From contig NC_134028.1 of assembly GCF_964204645.1 (NCBI RefSeq), positions 18,359,653 through 18,423,652 on the forward strand: a stretch of 64,000 nucleotides of DNA. The letters run 5' to 3'. Under the pieces are notes generated by a model. It saw nothing but the letters and a program-made list of their open reading frames with translations. It was not told the DNA's origin and searched no databases. This stretch comes from Tubulanus polymorphus (lineage: Eukaryota; Animalia; Nemertea). Made by a program: the position numbers and the translations under genes. Positions 2,198 through 54,689 of the stretch are shown one piece after another; position 1 is the stretch's first letter; every line of letters begins with the position of its first letter.

Positions 2198-5094
2198 AGG
2201 ACCAGCATTTTGCACTCCAAAACCTGTATCATTGTGGATGAATCATATATTTCATATCTGAACCACCGCCTGCACCTGATGAGAATGATGAGGAACAATT
2301 GGGAAAATTCTGGATGGCACAATTAAACTAGGAATTCAATGCTTAGAATTATATACAATGACTTGCGTTTGTCAGTGAGAAAGGTTTAAAGCTCTGATAT
2401 TCATCTAAAATCAGAAATATGAAATTTGTCAATTCCAGTGGCTCGAAGAAGATTTCTTGCTATTCCTAGAGAACTGGCGAGGCTATAGTCTGGTGATGAT
2501 TTAACAAAAGCAAAGGAGAGTCGCCTAGCAAAAGTAAGCAAAAACTGGAAGGATTTCAAATCACCAATAATGAGTTATTTATTTGAGATGTATTTAAACT
2601 TAAAGTATAAAAGGCCCATCATCTGTCAGACATGGCAGTATCTCTGAACCCATGGAGCAGTCAAGAGCTCCGCTGTTGAAACTGGAATTTCCCTAATATC
2701 TCTGTCAGTTAACCGGTTTGGACCCTCCTTTTTGTCAGGAATATGTGTAAACATGTAATATAGTCATATCTATGGCTTAAAATTTAGTTTAAGCCCTCCT
2801 TCATGCATAAATTAGCAATTTACTTAGTGCATTCTTCAAATTTTCAAATCTTTGAATGACAAGCTGGGAGGAGTTATTCACCTCACCACAGATAGCACAG
2901 TGACCTGTAGTCATAAACCTATATAAACAAAACAGTTGCAGCTCTCTAGTGCGTAATTTTGGGGGTTAGAAAACTTTTGACCTGAAATTTGTATCAAACT
3001 GAAAATTTATATATCATCTTAACTCCTCATCAGTAACAATGTGTGAAAATTTCATCAAAATCGGACAAAAATTGAATAAATTGAAAATACAGATTTTATG
3101 TTCAACTCCATTATTACTGGAGGAATTCTTATAAAAAAACATCTACAAAATCAGCGAATTCTAATTAAGAAGATTACTATGACCAAAATGATATCAAACG
3201 TATACGAAAAAAGTTTTTTTTATGAGTCACTGTGATATACTGTCGGCCTTTAAACTTAAACATAACTTACATTTACAACATGAACAACTTCAACATATAA
3301 TTTTCTATATTTTAGTTGAGTCATTTGTATGCCTGACTTGAGAATTGGTGCTTAAACCTGAAGTGTAGTTCTTTTTGAGTGGGAAGTTAAGCCAAGATCC
3401 GCTGGAGATTCATTTCAGCAAACAGAGATCTTGTGGAGGCAAACATGAAAACCCGAACTCGCTCGAATTTTGGCGTAACGACAGAAAAATGCTTGTTGCT
3501 GGGTCGAAAGCAACTCTTGCCTTGTGATATGGCAACTGCCAAGTCGACGATTACTCAGTAATGGACGAAATCGATATTCGGAGAAGAAATGATCACTAAG
3601 TATGTTTATTATTTGATTTCAGCCTGTTATAAACTATGTTATGGGAAGCACTCAAATTTTTCGAAGGCTTTTCTTCTTTGTTGTACCTGTTTTTGGTTTC
3701 AATTTCTGTTTCACAAACATGTGTGAATTGACGAATCCTTTCTTTCGAATTTGTATCTAGCAAATCTTGTTTCAGCATATATCTTTTCAATTGATCACTA
3801 CTAAAGGTGCTGATATGGAATTCCACGAGAATAATATTGCCGGTCACTTAGTACAGTATCTTTAAGGATTTTTTAACGTTTCCTTTCAGATTTACTGAAT
3901 TTTATGTGACAAGCAGTGGGTTTATTTTCAAATTTTTAAACCCTCTCATTAACACAGAAAAGTCCACCACGATTACAAATATCAATTAGTCGTTTAGTAT
4001 AGTCAAGAAATGTTGATGCACTCGAAATATCTTCAGTTCTCCAAGAGGTAAAAATTGTTGCATTATTTGCCGCCATAACAGAATTCTCCTTTTTAATTGA
4101 TTTATAGCCTATGTAAAGTTTTTAAGTTGAAATGCAACATATCCAGCTACATAACGAATAATTTGTTCGTTTTTATGGTTGAAGACCATATAGGGATTGT
4201 CGCTAGTAAAAATTCTGCCGTTCACAGAAAACACCCGTAGTATCTCTACTGCCATGGATATAGTCCCATAATGTTGTAATGATATAGAACTGATAATCTG
4301 ATAAAAAGTTGTCTGTCACGCCTCATTTGCCTATATCCATGATCCTAGCTATGACTATTGTTTATCCTGTTTTACTTGTTGGTCCAAAACAAAAATCGTG
4401 ACGAATTATGGAAAGTTTTGAGGCACATGAAGGGCTCACCATATCAGTGAATTGTCTAAATCGGTTTTACTCAGTAATGAAATATTATCCCCATCACTAT
4501 CATCACAGGTGCTTGCGCACTTATACATTCGTAAGTAATCCATAGATACTGCGCAGTTCGTGGTTTACACTGACAGGGAGAGTATTGGTAGGGTGGTCTC
4601 TGCGGTGTTTGTCAGTCGCCAGCCCAGATTTTATTTCTTGAAAGCGCTGCTGGTGAGGGATTTTCTTCATGCAATGAAAATTACCAGTAATGCCAGCCGT
4701 TATCACATATATCTATACAAACTACGCCATTCAAATATGCTGTATTCTTGGGAATACGCTGAGTTAGCATGGGTAGTAGGTTAGTGTGTAGAGACAGCGG
4801 TGCTGCATACACAGCAAGATAATCTGCTGCGTCCCGCCTAAAACACAGGCCGACTCAGATTGACTGACGCGAAAAAATCAAACTGTTTGGGTTAGGGTTA
4901 AGTTAGGCTTAGGTTTAGGTTAAAAAATAAATTCTCGCACACTCGAATTTATTTTTTATTTTTTGCTCACTCGACCCTTCAACCTTTGATATGAAACAAC
5001 TAAACCCCTATTACTCTTAAAATATTCATATATATGAATAAAATATAAATGAATAACTTCTAAAATCAATTTTAATAAAAGATTTAGTATTAAA

Positions 5095-8000
5095 ATGGAA
5101 GCAAATAAGTACTACTGTTCAACATGTAAAATCAATATAGATAAATCCCAAAAAGCAAGACACAATAAAACTAAAACACATTTAGAGAATAAATTGAAAC
5201 TAGAATATAAAGATGATATATTAGAAACTAAATTAGAAGAATTAAAGAATGAAAAAGAAACATACAAATGTGATACATGTAATCAATCATTCAGTGATAA
5301 AAGATATTATAAAGAACATTTAAAATCTAAAAGCCATATTAGAAATATGAATAATGATATTTTAGGTGAAGATTATTTTGATAATGATAACGATAAGAAA
5401 CATAAGACAATTAAAAGAATAAGAAATAAATTAAACAATAAAAGACCATACATGGAAGATGTAAGAAATTATATTAATTCATTAGATAATAAAAAAGATA
5501 TAGAGATAACCGAAGCATTTAAAAGTGATATTGGCCCAGCAGGTATCGAGTTTAAATTTCATAAAGGAAAAACATTAGAAGAAAATAAAAAACATTTAGA
5601 AAATATGAAAAATATTATAAAAATAATAACTGATGTTGAATATCCTAAAATTAGTATATCTTCTAAAGTAAAGTTTACAAAATCTGAAGATAAACCAATA
5701 TATAATATAAATTCTCATTCACAACATATTATATCTAAACAACATATAGATGATAAATTAGATAAATGTTATAATGAAGTAAAAACTAAAATAGAAGAGA
5801 AATATTTTGAAGGATCTGGTTTAATATTTGATGAAATAATATTTATGACTTTACATGTTTATAACACAAAATATAATAAGTTAACTAAATCAAAACCAAT
5901 AGATGAAAATAATGTATCATATTATAAAGAACCAGATATTGAAGCATTGAGTTATATATTAAACTGCCATTTAAAACTAATGCTGTAATAAATGTACAAA
6001 ATTTTGATGATAAATGTTTTCTATGGACAATTATAAGTTGCTTACATCCAACAGAAGATATTACACATAGTTTTAGATTAACTCATTATAAACCATTTGA
6101 AAATAATTATAAGATAGATAAGTATCCTGTTAGAATTAAAAACATCCCAAAAATAGAAAGAGATAATAATATAAAGATAAATGTATTTGATTTAATCAAA
6201 TTACCAAATACAAAAGGTAACAATATAAAACATTATACATTAGACCGTTTATATCTATCAAAAGATTATGATTCAAATGATGTTATAGATATACTATATT
6301 ATGAAAATCATTATATGTGGATTAAAAGAATTGATTTATTTTTTAAATCAGAAAATGATTTTGATAATAGAATATATCTACGTAGAAGATGTTTACATAA
6401 ATTCAGAACTGAAAGTGCATTATTAAATCATAAACAATTATGTGAAAATCATGATTATTGTAAATTAGTTTTACCAAATGAAAAGGATAAAATATTAGAA
6501 TGCAAAAAATATGATTACAAAAATGAAGTACCATTTGTAATATATGGAGATTTTGAATCATTAAATAAAGAACTAACTGATCAAGATAGAAAAGAAATAT
6601 ATTATAAAAGAAAGAAATTAAATTCTAATGAAAGTGATTTTTCAGATGAACCACCAAAAACAAATACAATTAAAAAGATTCATCAATCAGCTGCTGCTTT
6701 CGGGTTATATATAAAATCTGATTATCCAGAACTAATTAAAAGTGAATATTATCATTATAGAAATGAAAACGTTATTAATCATTTTTGTGACTTATTAATT
6801 GAATATGAAATAAGATTTAGTAAATTATTGAATACAAATAAAGAAATAATTATGACAGAAGAAGATAAAGAAGAATTTGTGTTTACAGGTAAATGTTATT
6901 ATTGTGAAAAGATATTTAATTATAAAGATAAAAAAGTCAGAGACCATGATCATTTGAATGGAAAGTTTAGAGGTGCTGCACATGAGAATTGTAACTTACA
7001 AGCTTACAAGAAAATTAATATGATGCTCATTTATTTATCAAACAGCTATGTTATAAAATAGAAGAAATTAATAATGAAATAGAAAGATTAAATTCAAATA
7101 GATCAAAAGATAAAATACCAACTTATAAATTTAAAATGTTAGCTAAAACATCTGAGAATTATATATCATTCCAATTTGGTTGCCTAAGATTTATAGATTT
7201 TTAAATAGTTCATTAGATAACTTATCAAAATCATTAGTTGATGATGAATTAAAAATATTAAAGCAACACTACCCAAATAATGATGATTTCCAATTAATGA
7301 GATATAAAGGCGCAATTCCATATTCTTTCTATAAAAATCATGATGATTTTAACATAACTGAATTATTGAAAGAACAATTCTATGATGAATTAAAAAATGA
7401 ATATGTTAAAGATGAAGTCTATAATAGAACATTGAATATTTGGAATCATTTCAAAATAGAAAATCATGGGCAATTTGTAGATTCATATCTAAAATCAGAT
7501 GTATTATTATTAACCGATATATTCGAAAGGTTTAGAGATGTAAACCAAAAATATTTTAATATTGGTCCTTGTCATTGTTATTCAAGTCCAGGATTAACAT
7601 GGGATTATGGATTAAAATTCACAGATATAAAAATGGATTTGATAACAAATATAGATCAATTATTATTATTTAAAAAATCTATAAGAGGAGGAGTTTCAGG
7701 TGTATTAGGGGATAGATATTTCAATGTAAATGATAACCCTGGATATAAGTTATTATATATAGATGCAAATAATTTGTATGGTTGGACAATGATGGAACCA
7801 CAACCTTATGGAGTATTTGAAATAAGTGAAGTTTCACAACATGAAAATAATGATAAATTTGATTGGAAGAAAAGAATCCTAGATATTGCAGATGATTCAG
7901 ATACTGGTTACTTCTTTGTTGTAGATTTAGAATATCCTGAACATATTAAATTTAAATCTAGAAATCTAGCATACTGTCCAGAACATAAAACTGTAACTCA

Positions 8001-9009
8001 TGAAGAATTATCAAATTACCAAAAAAGAATTAAACCCGAAAATCATATTCATACATAAAAGTTAATGGTAACTCAAGAAGATAAATATAATTATGTAGTA
8101 CATTATAGAATGTTAAAGTTTTATCTAAAACAAGGAATGATCCTAAAAAAAGTACATAGTTATATTTCATTTAGTCAATCTAAGTGGTTAGAAAAATATA
8201 TAGATTTTAACACCAAACAGAGAACTGAAGCTAAAACTGATTTCGAGCAAGATTTCTTCAAGTTAATGAATAATGCATTCTATGGTAAGACTTGTGAAAA
8301 TATTAGAAATAGAAATCATATTGAGTTAGTAAGTAATGGCAAAAGGATAAGGCATTTACAATCATATCCTAAGTTTTTAGGTAACAGAATATTTGATGAA
8401 AATTTAGCCGCAGTTAAAATGAGAAGAACATCAATGAAATTTAATAAACCAATCTATGTTGGAGCATCAGTTTTAGAATTATCAAAATTACTAATGTATG
8501 AATTCTATTATAATGTATTACAACCACTTTTTGGAGAAAAACATATAGAAATCTTATATTTTGATACTGACAGTTACATATTAAAGATAAAAACTAATAA
8601 CATAACAGATGATTTAAAAACATTCAAACATCATTTTGATTTCAGTAATTATCCTAAAAATCATGAATTGTTTAGCAATGATAATAAAAAAGTTCCTGGT
8701 AAATTCAAAGATAAATTAGGTGGTGAAGAAATGATTGAATTCATTGGTATTAGATCTAAAATGTATTCATATAAAACTAAAGAACATGAAGCTAAAAAGT
8801 TAAAAGGAATAACCAAAAGTGTAGTAGAAAAGAATATTCATTTCAAAGATTACATCAATTGTATATTCAATGAAGAAGTTAGAAAACATAAGATGAGATG
8901 TTTAAGATCTGAAGATCATGAAATGTTTATTGAAGAAATTGAAAAGATAAGTCTAAACCCATTTGATGATAAAAGATATATTTTAGATGATGGAATTCAT
9001 ACTTTTTAA
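5095..9009 (+). pseudogene. polB: Protein-primed DNA polymerase B with N-terminal C2H2 fingers and an endonuclease VII-like insert
   Basis: Four ORF pieces. Exo I VIYGDFES; CYYC..KVRDHDHLNGKFRGAAHENCN; YLKSDVLLL; pol motifs YIDANNLYG, KLMNNAFYGK and YFDTDS; KKVPGKFKD. Confidence 0.95.
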
Positions 9010-9038
9010 TCAAATTTTAATAAAAATATGTATTATAA

Positions 9039-9392
9039 ATGGAGAGTAAACAATCGCACAGTGAGAACAACAAATTATTTTTAGATAGAATAAAAGATAC
9101 TTCAAATGTCAAATCAGTAGATTATAAATTTAGGAAGTTAAAAGAATTAATAATCCATAAGAAATATCTAATTACAAATATTGATACAGTTACTAACAAA
9201 TATGGAGATAAATTAGTTATACACTTAGAATATGAAGGATTAAAAGGAAATACATATAAATTCAGAACATATTTACCAGATATATTTCATAGATTATCAA
9301 GTGAAGATCTAGAAGAATTATGTTCTGGAGATTTCTATTTCGTATACAAAGGTAAGAATGAAAAAGGGCGCCATGAAATAGATTTCGAATAA
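9039..9392 (+). CDS. Small viral protein, possibly OB-fold/ssDNA-binding
   Basis: Intact 117 aa with TAAATG start, directly after polB. Beta-rich pattern YLITNI..VTNKYGDKLVIHL..TYLP. Confidence 0.5.
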   Translation: MESKQSHSENNKLFLDRIKDTSNVKSVDYKFRKLKELIIHKKYLITNIDTVTNKYGDKLVIHLEYEGLKGNTYKFRTYLPDIFHRLSSEDLEELCSGDFYFVYKGKNEKGRHEIDFE

Positions 9393-9409
9393 GAAAATAT
9401 GTAAAATAA

Positions 9410-10162
9410 ATGGTAGAATTAAAAGAATACAGAATATTTGTTGATTCTAGAAAACTTACAAATTATAAATCACATAATTTACTAGTTCAATTAGATAGAG
9501 AATTTAAGAATTGTGTTGATTTAAAATTAGTTAATATAAGTTTATGTAATTCTTTTTACAATGTATCGGATAAAAGTCTTGAACATTTATTTATTTCAAT
9601 CAGGAGTAAGAATATATGGAATTATCTATTTTTAAAACCAGGATTATATAATTTAGAATCATTAACGCAAGAAATTAATAAAAAAGCTCGGATCAAATTA
9701 GGTAGTGATGCTGGCTTTAACGTTAGATTTTTGAAAAGTGATAATTCTAATAAAATGAAGATAAGGTTAGCTCATAATGAAAAATATCAATTTTCAGTTA
9801 AAAAACCTGTAGCTAAACTGTTAGGAATTACACCAGATAAACTTAATTCAAATGTTGATACTACACCAAATATAATACCTTACACACATTTCTATATTTA
9901 TTGCAATTTAATTGATCCTACAAAAACATTTGAAGCAACTAAAGATAAAACTTGCAATTCTAGTATACTAAATATTTTACCATTAAAAAATGTTAAACAA
10001 TTTGGAACTGAAATAAATTATAATTTAACAGAATGTGATTTTAAACCTTGCATTCCACATTTCAATAATTTCAAATTAGAAATAAGAAATCATAATGGAT
10101 ATTTAATTGATTTAAATAACTTTCCTGTGATATATGAATTAGTTATAAGATGTAGAGAGTAA
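9410..10162 (+). CDS. Minor capsid (penton-like) protein
   Basis: Intact 250 aa. N-terminal IFVDSR, YIYCNLID and C-terminal LEIRNHNGYLIDLNNFPVIYELVI resemble Polinton/virophage single-jelly-roll pentons. Confidence 0.75.
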   Translation: MVELKEYRIFVDSRKLTNYKSHNLLVQLDREFKNCVDLKLVNISLCNSFYNVSDKSLEHLFISIRSKNIWNYLFLKPGLYNLESLTQEINKKARIKLGSDAGFNVRFLKSDNSNKMKIRLAHNEKYQFSVKKPVAKLLGITPDKLNSNVDTTPNIIPYTHFYIYCNLIDPTKTFEATKDKTCNSSILNILPLKNVKQFGTEINYNLTECDFKPCIPHFNNFKLEIRNHNGYLIDLNNFPVIYELVIRCRE

Positions 10163-10178
10163 TTTTTTCATTATATAA

Positions 10179-10538
10179 ATGAATATAACTGTTGGACCGA
10201 GTATATGTTTTGGGTTTGATTTTAAACATGAGAAAGAAATGAAATTTAACATTAATGATGTAATTACACATATTAAAAATATTGCATTTTCTGATGAAAC
10301 AACATTTGAGTATGAAAAAACAATAGATAAAGAAACTTCAAATGTAGAAAAGATTACTGATTTAATTAGAGAATCTTTAAGATTTTATGAATTAGATGAA
10401 GATTTTATCATAGATGATATTAAAAACATATTAACCAAAATATATGATAATCCTGAAACTAGTAATGAAATAAATGTTGAAATAATTATAAATAAGATAA
10501 CTAAATATTTTGATGATAGTAATTTTTTTGATAAATAA
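10179..10538 (+). CDS. Acidic hypothetical viral protein
   Basis: Intact 119 aa with T6-N7-TAAATG start. Confidence 0.65.
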   Translation: MNITVGPSICFGFDFKHEKEMKFNINDVITHIKNIAFSDETTFEYEKTIDKETSNVEKITDLIRESLRFYELDEDFIIDDIKNILTKIYDNPETSNEINVEIIINKITKYFDDSNFFDK

Positions 10539-10760
10539 ATAAGTGATAATAAGTGGATAATAACTGGATTATATAATGGAGCATTACTATCAGTTGGAAC
10601 TTTTGGTTATTCAATGGTATTAAAAAAAGTATTCAAAATGGGAAGTGTTAATGTTGATAGATTTGATATAAATGATATCTTGAAATTAACATTAGCAGTT
10701 ACTTTATCTAATTTAACTATTGATTATTTGGAAAAACAAAAATATATTCCTCCCATATAA
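10539..10760 (+). pseudogene. Small hydrophobic viral protein with start codon mutated (ATG to ATA); not in ORF track
   Basis: 73 open codons, SDNKWIITGLYNGALLSVGTFGYSMVLKKVF...LEKQKYIPPI. Preceded by T7-N6-TAAATA and fills the intergenic gap. Confidence 0.65.
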
Positions 10761-10784
10761 ATGCGTAATTATTTTACTAAATAA

Positions 10785-11207
10785 ATGGCTTCTGCAATTA
10801 TAACTATTGTAGGATCGGCAATTGTTAACGCTTTAGCATTTACTGGTGGTGGTTATTTATTTAAGCATATTGATAAAAATAGTTCATTAGGAGAACAAAG
10901 AAGACGTAACTTAGCATTAGAAAAATACAATAAAGCAGCAGAAGAATATAGAGAAAAGAGGCAAAACTATATGGATTATATTAACAAGGAATTATATGAT
11001 CAGAAGATTTCACATAGAGATTTTCAATCAGTCGATGATGCAATGAGTTTATATAACGCAGTAACTAATAAAGAAAAATTACATCTATACAAACCTAAAT
11101 TATCAGATTATTATACCCCAAGTAAAGAACAAAAGAAATATGAAATAATATGGATTTTAGGTGGAACTGTGATCGTTATATTTGTAGCATATAGATTTAC
11201 TAATTAG
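10785..11207 (+). CDS. Viral membrane protein (hydrophobic N- and C-termini)
   Basis: 140 aa: MASAIITIVGSAIVNALAFTGGG, a charged helical middle, and IIWILGGTVIVIFVAY. Confidence 0.7.
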   Translation: MASAIITIVGSAIVNALAFTGGGYLFKHIDKNSSLGEQRRRNLALEKYNKAAEEYREKRQNYMDYINKELYDQKISHRDFQSVDDAMSLYNAVTNKEKLHLYKPKLSDYYTPSKEQKKYEIIWILGGTVIVIFVAYRFTN

Positions 11208-11227
11208 TAATTTTTTTTGCTAAATAA

Positions 11228-11653
11228 ATGGATGATAATATTGATATTATTCCTCATGATATAAATAAAACTAAATTAAAAATATATTTAGAAAAACAAA
11301 TATTAGAATTTGAAAATGATTTAAAAGTTAAAAAGAAAAAATATTTAAAATCTAAAATTATATATTATTTGATTATAAGTGGTTCGGTTACAATTAGGTC
11401 TGTAATAACATTTTTAGCAATATTCAGTCCATTAACACCTTTAGCTATATCAATTGGCGTACTAGGATTAAGTTCAAGTGTTTTAACTGGTATAAGTTCA
11501 AAATTAAATATAAAAAGTAATAAAGAAAAAATTAAAACTAATATTAAAGAAATCAATAAATTAAAAAATACACTAGATTATATAATAAGTTTAAATGGCC
11601 ATATAACTGTTGAAGAACAAGATAAATTATTAAAAGAATTAGTTAATTATTAA
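11228..11653 (+). CDS. Viral two-TM membrane protein
   Basis: 141 aa with a central hydrophobic hairpin flanked by Lys-rich helices; T8-N6-TAAATG start. Confidence 0.7.
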   Translation: MDDNIDIIPHDINKTKLKIYLEKQILEFENDLKVKKKKYLKSKIIYYLIISGSVTIRSVITFLAIFSPLTPLAISIGVLGLSSSVLTGISSKLNIKSNKEKIKTNIKEINKLKNTLDYIISLNGHITVEEQDKLLKELVNY

Positions 11654-11669
11654 TTTTTTAATTATATAA

Positions 11670-13058
11670 ATGGCAGATAGTTTTCCAAAAGCTTTCCAAT
11701 ATAATAAATCAATTAAATATAATATTCCTGCAATAGATTTTAATAAAGATATTACATATAGAAATGAAGTTTTAGATTCATTAACTAATTTAGAAATTTA
11801 TGTTACTGAAACTTATAATTTTAATGCAAAGATGGAAAATATATTTCATGTATATTTAAATAATTTTAAAAAATTGAAAGATGAAAAACAATAGTTATTA
11901 AAATCTAATATGAAGTATTGGCAGAACCAATTAAATTTTGCTGTTTATTGCGCTACAACAGGATGTGGAATAAGTTGGAATGATCATTTGAATAATTTTA
12001 AATATAAATTAATTCAAAGTTTATTTAGATTTCATACATACTTTCAAATCAGAATAATATTAAATGAATTAGAGTGTGCTTTACCAGGATCTAGATATTT
12101 TAAAGAATTAGATAATATTATTAATTTATCAAAGTTTTATAAAATTTGCAATGAATTTAATATAGATATAAATAATTCTAATTTTAGAACAAAAATTGGA
12201 ACAATAAGATCACTTCCTTGCCCTGAAAATATTTTACAATATTGTACACTTCCCATACCATCTAATAGCTTTTATAATATCTATAATAATAAATTAGGTT
12301 ATGGTAAAATAGAAACAAAGGATTTAGAAACATTAAATTTCAATAAATTACCGAAATTTTATGATCATTTAAAACAAGAAAACAATAATGCTTGGGTTTA
12401 TTTCATTTTAGAAAATAATGAAGGTTTTACAAAATCAGGTATACAAAGAATAAATCAATCTATTAGAACTTATTTGATATGTATTCTAGGATCACAGGTT
12501 GAAACAAGATCCCCAATAATTGGAAATTTAAATACATCATTTGATACACAGAAACAATTAAAAGTATTATTTGAAGATTCCATTCATAATGATAAAAATA
12601 GATCGATTCCAGAAAACATTGTAAGATATCAAAATTATTTAGATAAATCACATATTAGATTAAATTATTGTATAGGCCCTAATCTATTAATTATTTCTAA
12701 TGATTTAGTATTAAAGATGGGAAATATAATTGGTTATAATAATCTAATTAAAACTGCAACAATAAATAATTCATTTGGATTAAATGATATAAATAAAAAG
12801 ATTATTACTGCTCCAAAATTAATGGAAGGTGAAAAAAATAAAAAACACATTCAATCAACAGAAACTAAAACTAAGAATATTAAATTAAATAATGATTCTA
12901 AAATAAAAGATTACAATACATCAGAAGATATAAAAACTGATAATATTCAACATGATATAATTAAACTAAATGATGATAATAAATCCCATGAAAATACTAA
13001 ATTAGCTATAACTTGTATAGGAATTGTAATCGGAGGAATATTATATTTTAAATTTTAA
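11670..13058 (+). pseudogene. About 460-aa viral protein with C-terminal TM anchor; one premature stop
   Basis: ORFs 11670 and 11910 are in the same frame, split by TAG at 11892-11894. Contains YWQNQLNFAVYCATTGCGISW and ends LAITCIGIVIGGILYFKF. Confidence 0.7.
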
Positions 13059-13074
13059 TTTTTTTATTATGTAA

Positions 13075-14509
13075 ATGGATGTAGAAGGTGGAGAAGATAT
13101 TGGAATGGATAATTTTGATGAACCTGGCATAACTGATGAACAACAACCTAATTTTGATGAAACAAGTTTTAATGACGGTAATGAGCCAGAATATAATAAT
13201 AATTTAAATATGCCTGATTATATTAAAAATGCAGAATCACAATTAAATCCTGAAAATTTAGACCCAGATTTAGTAAAACAAGATTTAGATAATTTAAACA
13301 AAATACCCAAATTAGAACGTATAATTGAAAATTCTAAACTTAACATAAATGATGAAGACGTTGGACCTTTAGCAGATCAATTAAAATTTTTAGATAATGG
13401 TAAATGGTATTATCATTTGAAAGATGATTATTATATTGATATCTCTTATAAAAAACAAAACAAAATATTAACAAAATCAACTTTGAGTAATTTAGATCCA
13501 GATAGAATTAAAAGAATTAGTAATAGTAATGTAATAACTGATGTTATAAAACAAGAATTAACTGGTAATGATATAGACGTATTTAAACAAAGAATTAATG
13601 AATTATTTGAAATAATCAAAAAGAAATCAGAAACAGAAACAACTTCTGAACAGAATATAACTTCCAAAACTAGTAAACTTAAATCAAATAAAGTTCCAAT
13701 TGAAAAACTTTTACCGAATGGATTAATTGATGCAACAGATCAACAATTAGAAGATTCAGATATATTTTCTGATGAAGCAATTAGAGAAATTATTAGTATA
13801 AGAAATGAAGCTGATAAAATTGCACATAATAAAAGTATAAGAGATCAAAAAATTATGTATTTGGAGAAAGAATTAACTAATGCAAATAAAGAAATAGAAC
13901 AACTAAAGTCTGATTTAGATCATCAAGTAATTGATGAAATAGAATATAGGCAAAAAGAATTACGTTTAGAAAAAGAAATTAATAATTTAAAAGATAATTT
14001 AGAAGTACAGAAAGAAGAAATTAAATTATTATTAAAATCATATGATTATAATATTAATAGATTAAAAGTTATTATTTAAAAATTTGTTGATAAAACCAAA
14101 TTCTGAAATATCATTAAAAGATAGAATAAAGTTATTATTTAAATTAGAAGGAATAACAATTCTTTCAATTCTAACAGCTGTAACTATGTTATTTACAACA
14201 ATTGGTTTAGCAATATCAAATTCTTTGAATTCTACTCCTACTCCCAATAAACCGGATAAACCCCCGAATGATAATAATTCTATACAAGATAAAGTTAAGG
14301 ATGGTTTAAAGAAATTAGCAAAATATTTATGGGAACTATCTAAAAAATCTGCTGCAGCATTGCCAGGAGTTATTGCATCAATTGTTGGTTTTATATTGAA
14401 ATCTGCAGGAAACATTATTAACTCTGCTGCTGAACATATTATTTTATTTTTAATTACAGTTGTAAGTGCTATTATTTTTGGGTTAGTAAACATGATAAAA
14501 AATGAATAA
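13075..14509 (+). pseudogene. Coiled-coil plus multi-hydrophobic-helix viral protein; one frameshift
   Basis: Acidic N-terminus and long heptad region, frameshift near 14080, then three hydrophobic or amphipathic segments around a Pro-rich linker. Confidence 0.7.
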
Positions 14510-14529: not shown

Positions 14530-15767
14530 ATGAGTGGGAGTTATATCAATCCTTCTAAGAATCATAGAATATCTAATGCTATTAAAGTAGAAAGATCACA
14601 TCATATAATTACTCATAACCCTTCAAATATTAATCCTGATGAAACTTTATATGTTAGAATTCCTCGATTAACACAAAATACTTTTTATGTTCCAAATAGT
14701 ATTTATTTATCAGCCGATATAAAAGTAATCGGTAATAATAATTATGTTGTTGATAATGTTGGAAGATATTTGATTAAAAAATTAACAATAAAGATTGGCC
14801 CAGAAACAGTTTTCTCATTAAATGATTATAATTTATTTATGCATTATAAAGATTTAAAGAAAATAGAAATAGTATGATATTTCAAGGCATCCAATCAGAA
14901 AACCAAAATAAATTAAGATCAGAAGCGCATAATGCAATATTAACTAATGATATAGATAAATTGATAAAAAGTATATATGGAAGCAAATATAAAATTCCAT
15001 TAGGCTTTGAATTGATAAATAATAATGCACCTTTATATAAATATGCAATTCAAGAAGATATTATATTAGAAATAACATTTGCTCCTGTAAATGAAATTGT
15101 ATTATCTAGCGTTGTTAAAGATATGGGTTATAAATTATCGAATATATGTTTAGAGTATGACACAGTAACTAATGAAAATATTTCAAGTATAATTCAAACT
15201 AAATACAATCAAGGATTTTCATTATTATATGATTATATTGATAAATTTAAAACTGTAACTATTAATGCAAATGATGAAATTATTAATGAGAATATTAACT
15301 TCCCAAGAAGATCTATTAAAGGTATATTAATATTTTTTACAATTGCAACATATACTAATGGTGCAATACAGGTTGATAATTATTATAATCCTGAAATAAC
15401 AAAAGTAGAAATAACTATCGAAGGAATAGCAAATAAAATATTTTGTCAAGGAATGAGAATGATAGATCAATGGCCAGAAATTAGAAAACATTTTATGAAT
15501 GAAAAAGTGAAATCATCTGAAAATTGTAATATTAATCAAATTGATTATTATACCGGTAATATATGCATTATGGTTAGATTTTAGAACAACAGAGGATAAT
15601 TCATTACATGGTTCTGGAAAAAAACTACAGAACACTAAAGATGGAATACAATTATTCATGACAAAGAATTAAGGAATCAAAAATTTTAAATTAAAAATCA
15701 CATTTATATTATATCTGACGCGCAATTAAATATTGTAAATTCTCAATTAAATAGTGTTATGTATTAG
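14530..15767 (+). pseudogene. Putative divergent double-jelly-roll major capsid protein
   Basis: Three frame pieces totalling about 410 aa, beta-strand rich (TLYVRIP, LTIKIG, ILEITF, VEITIEG, YALWLDFR, DAQLNI). Size and position fit a capsid gene. Confidence 0.62.
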
Positions 15768-16253
15768 AATTTTAACTTAAATAAAAATTTATATAATAAA
15801 TGGAAGGAGGTAAAGTTTATAAACATATTCCATACATCGATACACATGAAAATAATGATGGTTTATATTATGTAATACCTTGTAATATAGCTTTGATATT
15901 TGATCCTATTTTCTAAATTTATAAAACTAAACTAATAGAAATCGATAATAATAAAAGTAGTGTTGTTGATAATTCAAGTAATGTAATTGATAATAATAAT
16001 GTAATACCTTCTACATCTAATAATGTAATAGCTTCTACATCTAATAATGCAATACCTGTTTCGAAAGTTCGGTTACTAAGCCGCTCATCTGGTTTGTGTT
16101 TATATATTTACTGTGGATGACATCTTGTTTATGTTTATTCTCCATCTATGTGAAATAAAATCAGTCACTTCCAAGGTTTCGTAGTAACCAGACGTGTTGC
16201 TTCTTTCTCTCGGATCTGTCCCCTCTGGTCGAATCGAACCTTTCACGACATTT

Positions 16254-16271
16254 TGGTGCCGTGACCAGGAT
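16254..16271 (+). other. Primer binding site, tRNA-His-like
   Basis: TGGTGCCGTGACCAGGAT lies 3 nt after the 5' LTR and resembles the canonical His PBS TGGTGCCGTGACTCGGAT. Confidence 0.8.
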
Positions 16272-19200
16272 GGGGTCAGAAGGAAGGCTAACGGCAATCA
16301 GAAGGGCCCAACGGGGCCAAATGACGAAGATTTTCGGAAAAACGGAAGAAAAACTAGCAGAGATTCTACTCGTCGATGAAAGTTCAAGAACTCTGGAAAC
16401 TGTTCAACCGTTCTCCACTTTAATCGACGCGCTGTTCACAAAATTCGAATATTTACGACAATTAGACCAACAATTAATGGATGAAATCGTTGATGAAACC
16501 GAGTTAACTAACACTATAGTTGAATCAGATGATTATCTCACTGAGATACAAATCAAACTCGGTCGATTCAAACTGAACTTGGATAATCTACTAGCGAAGA
16601 TACCAAAACCACAATCGCTAAACGAATCTGTAAGTACCATCAATCGAAGCAGTACTACCTCAACCGGCAGTAAAAAAGTCAATCTACCAAAATTGGCTCT
16701 CCCAAATTTCGATGGTGACATTTTGAAATGGTCTACTTTCTACGATAATTTCATCTCAGCCGTCGATAGCGATCCGCATTTGGACGATATCCAGAAGTTT
16801 CAATATTTGGTCGCACAACTCACTGACGAAGCAGCGCGTACCATAGAAGGTCTGCAAATAACTAGCGCTAACTACAAAGAAGCTCTGACGATCTTAGTAG
16901 AAAGATACGGTCAACCTCACAAGATCGTGAACGCGTACATCAGAGCTTTATTAGATTTGCAGCCACCGCAGGATCACGAGAGTCTACGCGAATTTTACGA
17001 TTCTTTGGAAACATATATTCGAGGATTGCGCGCGCTCGGGAAATCGGAAGATGCGTTCGGTGACATACTCGTTCCGGTAGTCTTCGATAAGCTACCGAGT
17101 CCCGTCAGAACACAAATTTCACGGGAGCACGGAGACCGCGCCTGGACACTTAAAGAACTACGCGACGCGATCCGAAAGGAAATACAAGCTACACAGGCAG
17201 GAGCGAGCTGCGTCAACTTCGATAATGAAAAATTATCCGCTCTTCATATAAGCACTAAAACGAGGAAAAATCCGGCCTCGAAAAACAACAGTTGCGCGTT
17301 CTGCAAGGGTCCACATACGGCGTTCTCATGCGATATAATCGTTAACCCAAAAAAGCGACAAGACATCATAAAGGCAAATCGTAAGTGTTATAACTGTTTT
17401 GGCAATCACATGGTAACAGCTTGCCAATCGAAATATCGTTGTAAGGTTTGCAAAGGCAAACACCACACTGCTATTCATATAGATCGAAATACTGATACGC
17501 ATATTGAATCAAAAAATATTCATGTCAATATAGCTCCAACTTCAAGTCCTGTTCTCTTGAAATCGGCTATTGGTCAAATAAATTATGGTTCGAATTCGAC
17601 CACGGTAAATATCTTGTTTGACGAAGGAGCGCAGTGCTCATTCATCACTAAAAAGTCGGTAAATGAATTAGGTGTCCGATTGGACAAATTTGAAAAGCAA
17701 GATGTAAATATTTCCACCTTTGGTGACAATTCGCCTGGGGCACGTACTCTACGGAGTATAGATTTAAAACTTCGTACGCGTAAAGGCGAAATTGGTTTAC
17801 GTGCATTAGTTGTACCGGAAATATGTCCACCAATTCAGAACAATGTAAAACTTGCTGTGACAAATCACCCGTACCTTCGAAATTTACCATTAGCACCGTA
17901 CGTCAACACCAGCAATTATGAAATTAATCTATTAATCGGTGCTGATTATTACTGGTCGATCGTAGAGAATGAAGTGGTTAGAGGAGCTGGCCCGACAGCT
18001 GTCAGTTCCAAACTCGGGTTCCTTCTATCAGGACCCATCAATTTGAATGCGAATACATCGGTACTCCATACTACCTGTCTTTTGAATACTATACATTCAA
18101 ACGATGAATTCTCAAAATTATCTAACTACTGGGATCTTGAAGTAATTGGCATCAAGGAAACGATTAAATCTGAAACAATGAATTTTGAAACGTATCGAGA
18201 CAATTACCTTAAACGCGATACCAGTGGTAAATATATAGCGAATTTACCTTGGAAAGAAGATTATCCACCGCTCCCTACCAATTTTGATATTTGTACCGCT
18301 AGAACTAGATCTATGGTTAAACGCTTGTCTCCAGAACTGAGGCAGAAATATAATGCGATAATAGCAGAGCAACTTTCACGCGAATTTATTGAGATAGTAG
18401 AAAATGATGACAAGAGCCAGGGCCATTACATACCGCACCACTCGGTTAAAAAGGAATCAATCACAACACCGATTAGAATTGTTTATGATTGTAGTTGTAA
18501 ACAAGGGGATAATCCTAGTTTGAACGACTGTCTGGAAAGCGGTCCTTCATTAATAAATGATCTTGTGCAGATATTAATCCGCTTTCGCACGAATAACGTC
18601 GCATTTACAAGTGATATTGAAAAGGCATTTTTAAATGTAAAACTCGGTGAAAACGATAGAAATTTCACAAAATTTCTATGGCTATCAGATCCTACGGATC
18701 CCGATAGTCCCTTCAAGGTCTATCGTTTCAAATCAGTACTTTTCGGGTCCACTAGCTCACCATTCATCTTAAATTCTGTAGTGAAAACGCATCTACAGTC
18801 CGAAAATACAGAAATCTCAATCGATATGCAATCAAACATATACGTCGATAACGTTCTCAGTGGCTCTCATAACGCTAAAAAAGCAATTGAATATTTTGAA
18901 GAAGCCACGAATACTATGAGCAGGGGTGGATTTATTTTGAGATCATGGGCTACAAACGACCCAGAACTAAGATCGTTGATAAAACAACAGGCAATGGGTG
19001 AGAATGATGAAATCGTCAATGTCGTAGGGTTACAATGGGATACGATTAGTGATACTCTTCAGTTTTCAAAGGCCATAAAAGACCCAGCTATGTGCACTCA
19101 GTCTGTGGTATCTAAGCGGGAAGTTGTGAGCGTAACAGCGTCACTATTTCACCCCCTTGGTCTCCTCTCGCCTGTGCATATTCAAGCTAAAATGTTTATC

Positions 19201-21597
19201 CAGAAATTGTGGCAATCTAAACAAACTTGGGATGAACCCTTATCTGATGAATTATCATCACTCTGGTTTGAAATACATCAGCAGTTATACGCCTGTCAAC
19301 ATACAGCTATACAAAGACCATATTTTGGTCAACCGACTAGTGAATGTGAACTACACATTTTTGCTGATGCCAGTCCCAATGCTTATGGGGCTGTAGCTTA
19401 TCTGAAAACTGACAAATCGACTTCAATCATTATGGCAAAATCACGGGTTAAACCATTAAAAGAGGTTACTATCCCTAGACTTGAATTATTGGCAGCACTG
19501 ATCGCTGCACGGCTCGCGAAATTTATCCGTGATGCATTCGACAAGTCAAATTTAAGTTTAACAAAATGTGTTCTTTGGTCCGATAGTCAGATCACAATAC
19601 ATTGGATTCGGAGTGAGAAGAAATTACCCACATTCGTCGAAAACAGAGTCCGTGAAATTCGGTCTGTCAAATTTGACATAATCAATTATTGTCCTACAAA
19701 GGACAACCCTGCTGATCTCTTGACTCGGGGCATCAATACCCAAGACTTGGATAATAGTAGATTATGGTGGTTTGGACCAACTTGGCTGCCTAATGGCGAT
19801 TGGCCAATTGATCGATTGAATAATTCAACTGTACTATATTGTTCAGTAAATAATTCTGAATCGCACTCTCAACAGTGTGCAGAATTAGCTAGTACTAATT
19901 CTATCTCAGTTCTATCAACCACCGCAACTCCATCAGAACCGTCTGGAATACAAAACGTAATAGATGTCGAGCAATTCAATTCGCTGCATAAATTACTTCG
20001 AGTCACAGCATGTGTACTACGCTTTATTTCTATTATGAAGAAGACATGTCAACCTAGACATAATCATATTACCGTGCCAGAAATACGTTTGGCTCGTACT
20101 ACGTGGGTTCGCTCTTTGCAAGATGACGAATTTTCAAATGAAATTAAATGTATTCAGAAAGGGGGACGAGGTACCCAATTGACTAAACAATTAAACCTAT
20201 TCACTGATAAAGAGGGTTTAATTAGATGTGGCGGTCGTTTTCAAAACGCGAATCTTAACTACAACGCTAAGTACCCAATATTATTGCCATCGAAGCACCC
20301 ATACACAAAATTAGTAATTAGTGACGCCCATAAAATGGTTCTACACAGTGGGTTACAATCAACTTTGTGTTACATACGTCAATCATATTGGATACCAAGA
20401 ATTAGGCAAATAGTTAGCCCAATTATTAGAAAATGCTCAGTTTGCATTAGACATGATGGTAAATCATATCGTGCGCCAATCACGCCTCCGTTACCTGCCT
20501 GTAGACTAAAAGAAGCTCCACCCTTTACCATCACAGGCGTTGATTTCACTGGCCATTTATATTATCGCACGAAACACTCAAAACAGAACAAGGCATACAT
20601 ATGTCTATTTACATGCGCCGTTTCCAGGGCAATACATCTGGAAATAGTCACTGATCTGACGCCTGCTTCCTTTATGAGAGCATTTCGCAGATTTGCCAGC
20701 AGGAGGTCGTTGCCAAGTCAATTGATCTCTGATAATGGTTCAACATTTTTGTCTGCAGAAAACGATATCAAAGAAATATTCAAATCAACAAAAGTCAGAA
20801 ACTTTCTGTCTAACAAACTTGTTACTTGGACATTTATACCGAAACGCGCGCCATGGTTTGGCGGATTTTATGAAAGATTAGTCGGTATAACAAAAAACAC
20901 TTTGAAAAAAGTAGTTGGTCGAGCGTGTATTACCTTGGACGAATTGTCGACTCTAATTACTGAAATAGAGGCTACAATAAACGATCGTCCTCTAACGTAC
21001 ATGACAAATGATGACGATGAGATCATTCCCTTAACTCCATCACATTTAATTTGTGGGAGAATGATTACTCTGTTACCTCAACCGGTAGTTGAAGAAAACG
21101 AACTAATTGATCCGAATTTTAACTTACCGCCCATCGGTTTCTCCGACGCGAAGAAACGCATGAAATACTTAGACAGTCTTTTCCAAGATTACTGGATACG
21201 GTGGCGAAATGAATATTTGCCAACCTTAAGGGAAAACCACTGTCAGACGCTAAAGCGGGGTGGCATTACGGAAAATCATGTCAAAATAGGCGATATAGTG
21301 ATCGTTCATGATGACTCAAAAAAGAGAATCTTTTGGCAACTCGCTATCATTGAAGGTCTGAACAAGGGCTACGACGGTCTTGTGAGATCCGCGGTAATTC
21401 GTACTAAAAGCGGGATTACGAATAGACCCCTTAAAAAATTATACCCCTTAGAAATCAATTCTGATAGTGGCGAGAAAATGAATGATGAATCATCGCCTCT
21501 AATTAGTAATATTCAACCCCCAATGAAAATAAAACGAAATGCAGCATTGAACGCTAGAAATAAAATAAAAAACTGGTGTGACAAACTGGTCGACTAA
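16270..21597 (+). CDS. gag-pol: BEL/Pao gag-pol polyprotein (gag with triple Cys-His knuckles, protease, RT, RNase H, integrase)
   Basis: LPKLALPNFDG; CAFC..H..C / CYNC..H..C / CKVC..HH; LFDEGAQ; DIEKAF; YVDN; FADAS..AYG; GVDFTG; SDNG; PWFGGFYERLV. No stops. Confidence 0.96.
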   Translation: MGSEGRLTAIRRAQRGQMTKIFGKTEEKLAEILLVDESSRTLETVQPFSTLIDALFTKFEYLRQLDQQLMDEIVDETELTNTIVESDDYLTEIQIKLGRFKLNLDNLLAKIPKPQSLNESVSTINRSSTTSTGSKKVNLPKLALPNFDGDILKWSTFYDNFISAVDSDPHLDDIQKFQYLVAQLTDEAARTIEGLQITSANYKEALTILVERYGQPHKIVNAYIRALLDLQPPQDHESLREFYDSLETYIRGLRALGKSEDAFGDILVPVVFDKLPSPVRTQISREHGDRAWTLKELRDAIRKEIQATQAGASCVNFDNEKLSALHISTKTRKNPASKNNSCAFCKGPHTAFSCDIIVNPKKRQDIIKANRKCYNCFGNHMVTACQSKYRCKVCKGKHHTAIHIDRNTDTHIESKNIHVNIAPTSSPVLLKSAIGQINYGSNSTTVNILFDEGAQCSFITKKSVNELGVRLDKFEKQDVNISTFGDNSPGARTLRSIDLKLRTRKGEIGLRALVVPEICPPIQNNVKLAVTNHPYLRNLPLAPYVNTSNYEINLLIGADYYWSIVENEVVRGAGPTAVSSKLGFLLSGPINLNANTSVLHTTCLLNTIHSNDEFSKLSNYWDLEVIGIKETIKSETMNFETYRDNYLKRDTSGKYIANLPWKEDYPPLPTNFDICTARTRSMVKRLSPELRQKYNAIIAEQLSREFIEIVENDDKSQGHYIPHHSVKKESITTPIRIVYDCSCKQGDNPSLNDCLESGPSLINDLVQILIRFRTNNVAFTSDIEKAFLNVKLGENDRNFTKFLWLSDPTDPDSPFKVYRFKSVLFGSTSSPFILNSVVKTHLQSENTEISIDMQSNIYVDNVLSGSHNAKKAIEYFEEATNTMSRGGFILRSWATNDPELRSLIKQQAMGENDEIVNVVGLQWDTISDTLQFSKAIKDPAMCTQSVVSKREVVSVTASLFHPLGLLSPVHIQAKMFIQKLWQSKQTWDEPLSDELSSLWFEIHQQLYACQHTAIQRPYFGQPTSECELHIFADASPNAYGAVAYLKTDKSTSIIMAKSRVKPLKEVTIPRLELLAALIAARLAKFIRDAFDKSNLSLTKCVLWSDSQITIHWIRSEKKLPTFVENRVREIRSVKFDIINYCPTKDNPADLLTRGINTQDLDNSRLWWFGPTWLPNGDWPIDRLNNSTVLYCSVNNSESHSQQCAELASTNSISVLSTTATPSEPSGIQNVIDVEQFNSLHKLLRVTACVLRFISIMKKTCQPRHNHITVPEIRLARTTWVRSLQDDEFSNEIKCIQKGGRGTQLTKQLNLFTDKEGLIRCGGRFQNANLNYNAKYPILLPSKHPYTKLVISDAHKMVLHSGLQSTLCYIRQSYWIPRIRQIVSPIIRKCSVCIRHDGKSYRAPITPPLPACRLKEAPPFTITGVDFTGHLYYRTKHSKQNKAYICLFTCAVSRAIHLEIVTDLTPASFMRAFRRFASRRSLPSQLISDNGSTFLSAENDIKEIFKSTKVRNFLSNKLVTWTFIPKRAPWFGGFYERLVGITKNTLKKVVGRACITLDELSTLITEIEATINDRPLTYMTNDDDEIIPLTPSHLICGRMITLLPQPVVEENELIDPNFNLPPIGFSDAKKRMKYLDSLFQDYWIRWRNEYLPTLRENHCQTLKRGGITENHVKIGDIVIVHDDSKKRIFWQLAIIEGLNKGYDGLVRSAVIRTKSGITNRPLKKLYPLEINSDSGEKMNDESSPLISNIQPPMKIKRNAALNARNKIKNWCDKLVD

Positions 21598-23324
21598 TGC
21601 ACAGGTTCAGCCTAATCAGAGTATAATTCAAACTTATGTTCATAATGTTTCTTAATATGAGTTAATTTCATTTTTGAAGATTTATAATGTTAAGAACATG
21701 TTCTTCTATGTTTTTCAATTATTAAAATGTGTAAATGACGATCACCATAGTATATATGTAAAATTTAATGTTAATTGAAATGTAAGTTGAATCTTAACAG
21801 TGAAAATCATGTATGTATACATTCAAGCACAAATTGTATTAATGTTGAAATACTATGTAATTTCCTTTCTATTATATACCTGAATATATATCGGAGTAAA
21901 TGTTCTTTTTATTTCTGATATTCACATGTTTTTAATTTCAAGAATACGTCAATCAATATTGTAATCTGTTATCTCATAATAATGCTATACAATATCCTAG
22001 TTATCATGTATACACCTATATTTTAGTTGAGACACAACGCAATGTCATAGTTTAACGTCAAAGCTTAATGTCAATGTTTAATGTCAAAGCAATCTCAGTT
22101 TTGTGTTAAATGAAGATTAAGAGTAATGCAAACTTAATGTATCGAAGATTTAGTGATTCTGATATGAAATTGGAAATTGATTAATTTCTCATTTTTTACG
22201 TAGGCTTATTAACCTCATAGGTATTCCTAATAGCACATAGGCATTATACATCCTATTTTTTCTTCCCGCCGCCGGGAGTGTTTCGAAAGTTCGGTTACTA
22301 AGCCGCTCATCTGGTTTGTGTTTATATATTTACTGTGGATGACATCTTGTTTATGTTTATTCTCCATCTATGTGAAATAAAATCAGTCACTTCCAAGGTT
22401 TCGTAGTAACCAGACGTGTTGCTTCTTTCTCTCGGATCTGTCCCCTCTGGTCGAATCGAACCTTTCACGACAATACCTTCTACATCCAATAATGTAATAC
22501 CTACTACATCTAATAATGCAATACCTTCTACATCTAATAATGTAATACCTTCTACATCTAATAATGAAATAATATTAAATATTAGTGAAAATAGAAATTA
22601 TTGTGATTATTGTAAAGGTGAATCAAACGCTTCATCAAATTGGAATAATCATATGAATACAAATTCACATATTATTAATGTAATAGATCGTGTCGGTATA
22701 AGAGAATTTATAGAACACCCATTTAATTATGTTACAAAGTTTGTTTCAAATAAAAAAGTAGATGGTAAAGATTTATATAAAGATTCATTAGGTGAATTTA
22801 TCTAAGGAACGTAGTAATGATAAATTAGATTTATCTGCTGCTAAAAAAATATTAGGATCAAACATTGTAAATGAAATGTTGGAGTCAAACACTAAGAAAG
22901 ATGACAATGAAAATATAGTTACAGATAAGCATATTGATATTAAAGATTCTATGAAACATAAAGTAAAAAATGATGATAAATTTGATTGGATGAATAAGCA
23001 TAACAATGAAACAACTATTGATGATGCGGTAAAAAGGGTGAAGAATAAGTATAAAAATAATAAAGAATTTGAAGAAGAAAATTCGGTAGAGATTTTGAAA
23101 AAATTGATGGGGTATGATAGTGAAAGTGATTAAAATATTAATTGTATTTAACACAAAAATAATATTGGTTGAAAATTGTATAAAATAATAGTAAATAAAA
23201 AAAGGGTTTTTAAATAAATTGGTTGAAAATTGTATGAATAATATTTATTTTAAAAAGGGGGTTTTAAGTATTAATGTATTTAATACGTATTTAATACGTA
23301 TTAGATGGATAGATATATAAATAG

Positions 23325-23926
23325 TTATTTTATAAATTTATATTCATATGGAAATTGAAGCCTCAGTAATAATTTTGAACCTTTATTATTCTTTAATTTA
23401 TTCATATATTCATCATGTAATTCAGTAGGTATAATTTGATTTTCTTCCAATGATTGTTGCATAGATTTTCTATCTTTATTGTAGAATAAAACTATAAATC
23501 TTATATTCTCCCTAAAGTCTTTAACAATTGAATTATATTTTTGATTTAAAACCCATGTTGTTATCCCAAAATGTCTCTCAGAGAAAGCTAAATAACATAA
23601 CTCACTTTCTAATCATGTTAATTAGCGCAATCATCTACAATGAATAATGTATTTGATCCTTTATAAGTATCAATTGCTATTTTAATACAATTATCTAAAT
23701 TTTCTTTTACTGTTTTAGGATCTAATATAATAAACTTCTTTATTTTAACTATATCTCTATTATATGTTTTATTCACTTCATAAGTAGGGCAGAATAATAT
23801 TATATTATCAAAATGATTCTTATAAATAGTTTCTAACAAATCTAATATGAAATGTGTTTTACCACAGTTTCTTACTCCAGTTATTAACATATTATGCGGT
23901 TCAAATATAAATAAATCTTTATTCAT
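23325..23926 (-). pseudogene. A32/FtsK-type genome packaging ATPase
   Basis: Walker A ITGVRNCGKT and Walker B FIVDDC. After a frameshift near 23615: LAFSERHFGITTWVLNQKY..RENI. Confidence 0.88.
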
Positions 23927-25007: not shown

Positions 25008-25014
25008 CTTATTT

Positions 25015-54671: not shown

Positions 54672-54689
54672 TGGCGCCCAACGTGGGGC
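54672..54689 (+). other. Primer binding site, tRNA-Lys
   Basis: TGGCGCCCAACGTGGGGC is the canonical Lys1,2 PBS and lies 2 nt after the LTR. Confidence 0.92.

Follow-up and report, generated by a model that had tools for sequence, protein, structure and literature searches.

A conserved set of membrane-type genes travels with the capsid gene in a protease-free lineage of Maverick-like elements

Does a Maverick that carries a row of genes for hydrophobic proteins, and no gene for a maturation protease, build a particle that contains a membrane? The question is raised by a 64,000-nt stretch of the genome of the nemertean Tubulanus polymorphus (NC_134028.1, positions 18,359,653 to 18,423,652), here called the window, in which an AT-rich Maverick (21 to 25% GC) bounded by terminal inverted repeats (TIRs) occupies positions 4921 to 31691. 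The sequence-only reading, made from the letters of this stretch, had proposed a distinct lineage with a membrane-containing virion. We found that seven protein families, named here by their genes in the window (10539, 10785, 11228, 11670, 13075, 25420, and 25967), travel with the capsid, penton, and packaging ATPase genes. The module is real, conserved, and largely uncharacterized, and it resides in a known but little-studied lineage. Because this fixed set follows the capsid and not the replicase, it points to particle building, and because several of its members are plain anchors, it points to a bilayer. Judging from gene content, we lean slightly toward a lipid-containing virion that is built with this conserved, protease-free module.

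Hydrophobic proteins encoded beside the capsid gene

The block consists of five forward-strand genes between the penton and capsid genes, in the order and at the positions reported earlier. The upstream neighbor (9410 to 10162, + strand) is a putative penton (minor capsid protein) gene that matches its family profile at E 6e-50; we base the label on size, position, and the ability of that profile to pick out the equivalent gene in 8 of the 22 Maverick control loci. The controls (L081 to L102) are 22 of the 24 viral contigs from an integrase scan, L103 and L104 having been excluded for weak, prokaryote-like matches. A segment was called transmembrane (TM)-like when a 19-residue Kyte-Doolittle window reached at least 1.6, a call that reflects hydropathy windows and not a trained TM predictor.

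The first gene of the block (10539 to 10760, + strand; family C9, 14-member alignment) encodes a moderately hydrophobic two-helix protein of ~75 aa; the copy in the window lacks an in-frame ATG. Its hydropathy maximum of 1.09 lies under the threshold, which 2 of the 14 family members reach, so the label TM-like is weak for this gene. The second (10785 to 11207, + strand; family C8) encodes a 140-aa protein in which a charged helix separates two hydrophobic ends and which has two TM-like segments; in the 14-member alignment, at least one such segment is present in 12 proteins and two are present in 9. The third (11228 to 11653, + strand; families C28/C4) encodes a SLATT-like two-helix membrane protein, also with two TM-like segments. 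Its orthologue in the relative L003 matches NF033632 (E 3.8e-5) and PF18142 (E 0.0013), both below the curated cut-off, and a homologue (E 1.4e-21) is found in the protease-bearing Maverick L092, which is the sole connection between C4 and C28.

The fourth gene (11670 to 13058, + strand; family C0) encodes a tail-anchored protein of ~440 to 460 aa, here 462 codons with one internal stop (11892 to 11894) and a single TM-like segment at the extreme C terminus. The family has 154 homologues, and the tail anchor is kept in 102 of the 120 listed, which bears out the ~460-aa, C-terminally anchored protein described earlier. The fifth gene (13075 to 14509, + strand; family C1, 18-member alignment) encodes a long protein that shifts frame near 14070 in this copy and has three TM-like segments in its C-terminal frame (14066 to 14506). 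C1 proteins consist of an acidic N terminus, a coiled coil, a hydrophobic helix, a proline-rich spacer, and C-terminal helices that are strongly amphipathic (moment of 0.48 to 0.68 in the six shown). All 18 members have at least two TM-like segments, so the long coiled-coil protein with terminal hydrophobic helices was also read correctly. The C1 homologue search gave at least 7 matches among 7,999 scored, and matches to tape-measure proteins were weak and came from single members only.

Two reverse-strand genes complete the set. Gene 25420 (25139 to 25420, - strand; family C14) encodes a basic helix followed by one TM-like segment; such a segment is found in 8 of 11 family members, and the N terminus is net basic in 10 of 11. 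Gene 25967 (25413 to 25967, - strand; family C3b) encodes a conserved helical protein and follows the ATPase in most of the relatives' gene orders; an N-terminal TM-like segment is present in 9 of 16 relatives and absent from this copy. The earlier statement that the five block genes and 25420 all encode TM-like segments thus holds for 10785, 11228, 11670, 13075, and 25420 but not for 10539. Hydrophobic anchors were absent from the capsid (0/74), ATPase (0/16), and integrase (0/7) proteins and present in 2 of 26 pentons. The anchors of the block families are not due to chance: they are conserved within each family, and the capsid, ATPase, and integrase controls lack them.

The set recurs in relatives with different gene orders and replicases

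Scanning metagenomes with the C0 profile gave 130 confirmed loci, the best 80 of which are used here as module loci. In the 14 of these that are at least 8 kb long, C1 is present 14 times, penton and capsid 13 times each, ATPase and C3b 12 times each, and C8, C9, C14, and the SLATT-like gene 11 times each; missing members are explained by contig ends that truncate the loci. A scan started from the capsid gave five further loci. Four of them carry both C0 and C1, and the remaining one is 1.9 kb long; the entire set is present in the three long ones, which come from a single assembly. All of the module is present in L108, a complete 15.1-kb element with 243-nt inverted repeats and a 6-bp target duplication. 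The relatives show at least four gene orders around capsid, penton, and ATPase, and the replicase beside the module is a protein-primed DNA polymerase (pPolB) in some loci and a helicase-bearing replicase in others. Recurrence of the same families across these orders and both replicase types indicates that the block is no quirk of a decayed copy. The two types, the second a large replicase with an SF1 helicase, separate L014:9970-13404, L027:9279-12458, and L038 from L011, L046, L051, and L108.

Between the window and L003, identity is 89% for C9, 79% for C8, 77% for 11228, 62 to 70% for C0, 74% for the C terminus of C1, and 34% for its N-terminal part, compared with 72 to 77% for the capsid. 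By these identities, conservation of the module proteins is similar to that of the capsid, except for the N-terminal part of C1. Relatives spanning 20% to 59% GC retain the anchors, and the C0, C1, C8, C9, C3b, and C14 profiles match none of the 22 control loci. No relative turned up in IMG/VR when it was scanned with C0, capsid, and ATPase, and C8 gave one weak match to an unrelated contig; no free particle of this lineage is therefore in evidence there.

C0, C1, C8, C9, C3b, and C14 had no usable match in Pfam, PHROGs, or NCBIfam. PDB sequence searches with the capsid, C1, and C0 profiles and profile-profile comparisons among the small families gave nothing significant, and cluster look-ups returned no informative names. 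None of the module proteins matched a known soluble Maverick protein. The proposal of a module peculiar to this lineage therefore stands insofar as the set is conserved and mostly without known match, and it fails for 11228, which is SLATT-like and shared with protease-bearing L092.

Several features of individual relatives were noted in passing. A fibre-like gene, C10, adjoins the penton gene in 14 of the 80 loci (L008, L010, L014, L020, L025, and others) and is absent from the window; the putative fibre family also matches two protease-bearing controls, L092 and L094. L003, the closest long relative, has a deoxynucleoside kinase gene (L003:10343-10981; PF01712, E 1.7e-31) with no counterpart in the window. 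L106, L108, and L109 sit in contigs filed under a bacterial metagenome-assembled genome; retroelement-like open reading frames (ORFs) flank two of them, and the contigs are probably misbinned eukaryote DNA. In L106, a portion of the element is duplicated in tandem.

No adenain-type protease accompanies the module

Pfam marks just 3 of 6 control proteases and is thus a poor test, so we used a custom adenain profile built from nine control proteases, each of which was recovered at E 2e-10 or better when left out. The profile marks 13 of the 22 control loci. It found nothing in the 64-kb window and nothing in the 85 module loci (412 kb translated in all six frames with X for stops; best match, E 3.5), including the complete element L108, which holds the whole module. 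The absence noted earlier was therefore confirmed for this copy, and it is shared by the relatives, the complete L108 among them, so it does not reflect a protease that they carry and this copy lost. A Cys...His motif in the polymerase frame at 5943 to 7058, which has no Pfam match and which we take to be of the OTU-like kind, means that the element lacks a maturation protease and not every cysteine-protease domain. An OTU-like Cys/His motif is described in adintovirus PolB (PMC8502044).

C0 is the module protein that invites comparison with a protease. It has a globular domain of ~360 to 370 residues, a disordered linker, and the C-terminal anchor, with no N-terminal hydrophobic signal. In the numbering of the homologue P0002, Cys99 is conserved in 83 of 84 sequences and His122 in 84 of 84, and Cys94, His106, Cys160, and Glu162 are each conserved at 90% or more; C0 also matches none of the 13 adenain-bearing control loci, as might be expected of an unrecognized Cys-His protease that substitutes for adenain. 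We consider this substitution very improbable: C0 shows no likeness to the adenain profile (probability, 0.09), no protease appeared among the fold matches, and three Cys and two His residues would fit a metal site equally well. In three fold searches, all run with the whole chain rather than the trimmed domain, the P0002 structure model (pLDDT 83) gave no structural match: Foldseek found nothing at E 0.001 in viral or PDB libraries, and the best VIA Z was 3.9. An ESM Atlas search with C0 gave no usable match. The modeled domain is a candidate new fold, of which absent matches are no proof.

The window element is visibly decayed, with many breaks, two large insertions, and low read depth at 22804 to 23134, where other copies consequently appear to differ. 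One might suppose that a protease was deleted from this copy and that the hydrophobic genes arose by chance in AT-rich DNA. In one DNA run from an organism that carries the stretch, left-arm depth was ~130 to 1,180 (mostly 500 to 900), compared with 22 to 108 in three flank bins, and reads over the left arm were mostly 90 to 99% alike; the element is thus one decayed member of a multicopy family, with copy number judged from read depth. Most reads differ from this copy at the 13075 frame change. An insertion of high-copy host repeats (26697 to 29094), where depth was ~1,700 to 12,000 compared with ~300 to 900 in the element arm, is absent from other copies, 151 reads from which join 26696 directly to 29095 and so skip the 2.4 kb. 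These reads, the retention of anchors from 20% to 59% GC, and the absence of a protease from all 85 loci, a complete element included, already refute the deletion-and-chance account, and we give it almost no credence.

The capsid places the element with Polinton-3_NV

The major capsid protein gene (14530 to 15768, + strand) is in three pieces. A model of the L003 orthologue (pLDDT 94) is a double jelly roll whose closest fold is that of PBCV-1 (Z 27.7; root mean square deviation [rmsd], 3.7 over 362 residues), followed by faustovirus (Z 24.0), Sputnik (19.0), PRD1 (13.8; rmsd, 4.9 over 314 residues), and adenovirus (11.8); no viral model listed was above 15% identity. Compared with eight control capsids, it scored at most 7 bits with five Maverick capsids and gave no score with one; the PLV-like capsids of L100 and L102 scored best, although weakly (16.6 and 12.1 bits). 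PF21738 was found in 0 of 52 members of the capsid family and in 4 of 6 controls, a small control set. At 50% identity, the family forms 430 clusters whose E values are 1e-30 or better, and an ESM Atlas search returned unnamed viral capsid clusters.

By eye, the capsid of Polinton-3_NV (P3_NV) from Nematostella vectensis, in the sequence given in Fig. S3 of PMC4028283, shares 21 of 37 residues with capsid P0309 (76% identical to L003) in an ungapped C-terminal block, with motifs shared along the length. The window capsid thus appears to be of the Polinton-3_NV (PLV-like) type and not the canonical Maverick type. Table S1 of PMC4028283 lists Polinton-3_NV as positive for capsid and ATPase and negative for protease, and N1_NV, N1A_NV, and N1B_NV are, like the window element, protease negative there. 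The P3_NV and N1A_NV capsids are reported to fall outside the Maverick groups, near PgVV (PMC11296320, PMC10120064, 10.64898/2026.10.13.758929), and PLV-type capsid modules are described as usually protease free (PMC4642659, PMC7805220). The P3_NV match, the protease-negative listing, and this rule for Polinton-like viruses (PLVs) together mean that both the lineage and its missing protease were already known. The earlier claim of a distinct lineage is right in that capsid scores and PF21738 set the element apart from canonical Mavericks, but that lineage is in print as Polinton-3_NV/N1A_NV. The published accounts differ from ours in that Polinton-3_NV is reported as a small clade, with no membrane genes mentioned and no penton listed, whereas here we find a penton and seven conserved families. 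Animal elements with PLV-type ATPases have been reported from octocorals, hydrozoans, and bivalves (10.64898/2026.06.19.733378).

The element has the features by which Mavericks are broadly recognized (pPolB, RVE integrase, TIRs, double jelly-roll capsid, penton, and A32 ATPase), and the 6-bp target duplication is found in L108. With canonical Mavericks/adintoviruses (groups 1 and 2) it shares TIRs, pPolB with an OTU-like motif, a chromodomain integrase, the A32 ATPase, a related penton, and, in the case of L092, a SLATT-like gene; it differs in lacking adenain, in its capsid, and in that Pfam scans here found no PLA2X. Polinton-like viruses (Aquintoviricetes; PgVV/Gezel-14T and TsV-N1) likewise have capsid, penton, and ATPase and no maturation protease (PMC4642659), but the present elements resemble Mavericks in their pPolB, RVE integrase, TIRs, and target duplication, and no lipase was found in them; the PLV-like controls L100 and L102 have none of the module families. 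The tectivirus PRD1, which has an internal membrane, also combines a protein-primed linear genome, an ATPase, and a double jelly-roll capsid with the lack of a maturation protease (PMC4642659), although PBCV-1 and faustovirus are structurally closer, and the module proteins have no sequence match to phage families beyond weak single matches. Nematode Mavericks that bear a fusogen provide a precedent for a possibly enveloped Maverick (10.1101/2023.08.22.554363); these retain the protease, whereas the present element showed no match to a fusogen and no ectodomain of the signal-peptide type.

What kind of particle would the module build?

PRD1 has a packaging vertex at which small membrane proteins and a factor lie beside the ATPase, and it is described as maturing by membrane expansion (PMC4267777). 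We infer the following roles from this working model. If tectiviruses and large DNA viruses serve as a guide, the small hydrophobic 10539 and 10785 proteins may tie the membrane to the shell, and the 25967 and 25420 proteins, whose genes usually come after that of the ATPase, may fix the packaging motor and the DNA to a single vertex. Delivery of the genome across a host membrane would fall to the coiled-coil 13075 protein, and the tail-anchored 11670 protein would be a membrane-bound protein of the virion or of the assembly site. The SLATT-like 11228 protein would probably form a pore of its own, used in exit or defence. In place of proteolytic maturation, the membrane would expand as the genome is packaged.

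Some of the same properties could suit a lipid-free virion in which C1, C8, and C9 are internal membrane-lytic proteins freed in the endosome, like adenovirus protein VI or adintovirus PLA2X/GasderminX/Cupiennin. Adintoviruses are reported to hold three classes of membrane-active accessory proteins (PMC8502044), and both the amphipathic ends of C1 and the small size and moderate hydrophobicity of C9 would fit such a role. We regard this arrangement as unlikely because C0, C8, and C14 are plain single anchors with basic flanks, which suit a bilayer; because the module profiles miss the accessory genes of all 22 control loci; and because six or seven such proteins exceed the needs of an entry peptide.

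The proteins might instead be nonstructural and remodel host membranes for an assembly site, help the virus to leave the nucleus or the cell, or be abortive-infection effectors directed at other viruses. The holin- and SLATT-like genes of polisuviruses have been interpreted as serving egress or defence (10.64898/2026.10.13.758929), 11228 is itself SLATT-like, and the 370-aa globular domain of C0 would be large for the space beneath a small capsid. These roles seem improbable to us for the set as a whole: genes carried for defence usually have a patchy distribution, but this set accompanies capsid, penton, and ATPase whatever the gene order or replicase, and its divergence is about as slow as that of the capsid.

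Besides the polisuvirus interpretation, several points weigh against a membrane-containing particle. No module protein could be linked by sequence or structure to a protein of PRD1 or poxviruses or to a fusogen, small membrane proteins being difficult to match, and the structure models cover C0 and the capsid only. The 10539 protein is under the TM threshold, and C3b is anchored in just 9 of 16 relatives. PLVs, too, lack the protease (PMC4642659), and a missing protease is therefore a poor guide to a membrane. The module loci are mostly short contigs picked by C0, which inflates co-occurrence with C0, and several of the controls are near-duplicates.

Gene starts share a motif

The sequence TAAATG is present at 12 of 15 gene starts in the window (5095 to 31517) and at 15 of 15 in L003, compared with 39 of the 723 remaining ATGs of the element and 11 of the 76 ORFs used as controls. 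In both the window and L003, T is found at position -12 in 14 of 15 starts, and a T-rich sequence lies ~10 bases upstream. These starts deviate from the usual purine at -3. The motif is limited to AT-rich members, and base composition thus explains part of it. The starts resemble the poxvirus late promoter (PMC11980589) and may point to a pox-like helper virus; PgVV and its helper have a common promoter. In L051, a different repeated motif (TTTAAAAATAATCT-like) lies ahead of several genes, which suggests branch-specific promoters.

A fuller picture, which we offer tentatively and consider possible rather than probable, is that a large family of integrating animal DNA viruses kept or rebuilt a tectivirus-like particle with an internal membrane, an anchored packaging vertex, coiled-coil delivery, a new-fold tail-anchored protein, and no proteolytic maturation, and that its AT-rich branch, with poxvirus-type late promoters, would be switched on by a pox-like helper.

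Other features of the window

The TIRs are 456-nt arms at 4921 to 5376 and 31236 to 31691 that are 95% complementary, with no clear target duplication at the ends of this element. Degenerate telomere-like TTAGG repeats lie at the left junction (4900 to 4921). The pPolB gene, in four pieces (5095 to 9009, + strand; PF03175 and PF02945), encodes zinc fingers and an endonuclease VII domain; because the TIRs contain the start of its zinc-finger/polymerase frame (5095), a short zinc-finger ORF recurs at the right end (31517). Between penton and block lies an ORF for an acidic, soluble 119-aa protein (10179 to 10538, + strand) that has no hydrophobic segment and is found in the closest relatives only (three loci). 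The A32-type packaging ATPase gene (23325 to 23926, - strand; PF04665) has one internal stop, and the adjacent gene for the RVE integrase with chromodomain (23919 to 25013, - strand; PF00665 and PF00385) is in three pieces. A 217-aa ORF (29544 to 30197) with a Cys-rich start, common to three loci, has a motif that we take to be HNH-like.

An LTR (long terminal repeat) retrotransposon, presumably of the BEL/Pao type, is inserted outside the module (16057 to 22472, + strand) in a 24-nt tandem repeat of the Maverick; its identical 194-nt direct repeats and open 1,775-aa ORF indicate recent insertion. A second LTR-like element (54097 to 61471) has identical 300-nt repeats and several long ORFs. 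The retroelements and the relatives of the Maverick suggest an animal host.

Implications

Our literature search found no description of a conserved membrane module, although the supplements of two 2026 preprints may list its families as orthogroups. Holin- and SLATT-like orthogroups are mentioned in these viruses (10.64898/2026.10.13.758929), and a coral survey reports frequent unknown proteins, membranes not being named in its account (PMC11131425). Since nematode Mavericks already carry a fusogen (10.1101/2023.08.22.554363), the sequence-only reading was overstated on this point as well.

Maverick particles have so far not been observed, and a lipid membrane has likewise never been observed for such elements. 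A fixed membrane-protein set that accompanies one capsid type points to lipid-solvent sensitivity and named particle proteins as things to look for. The profiles of C0, C1, and C8 are markers overlooked by canonical Maverick scans. The fixed set also makes of the sea-anemone "small clade" a broad family whose particle module is defined. Should the membrane be internal, this family would bear on the question of whether a tectivirus membrane was retained in the ancestry of the double jelly-roll viruses of eukaryotes.

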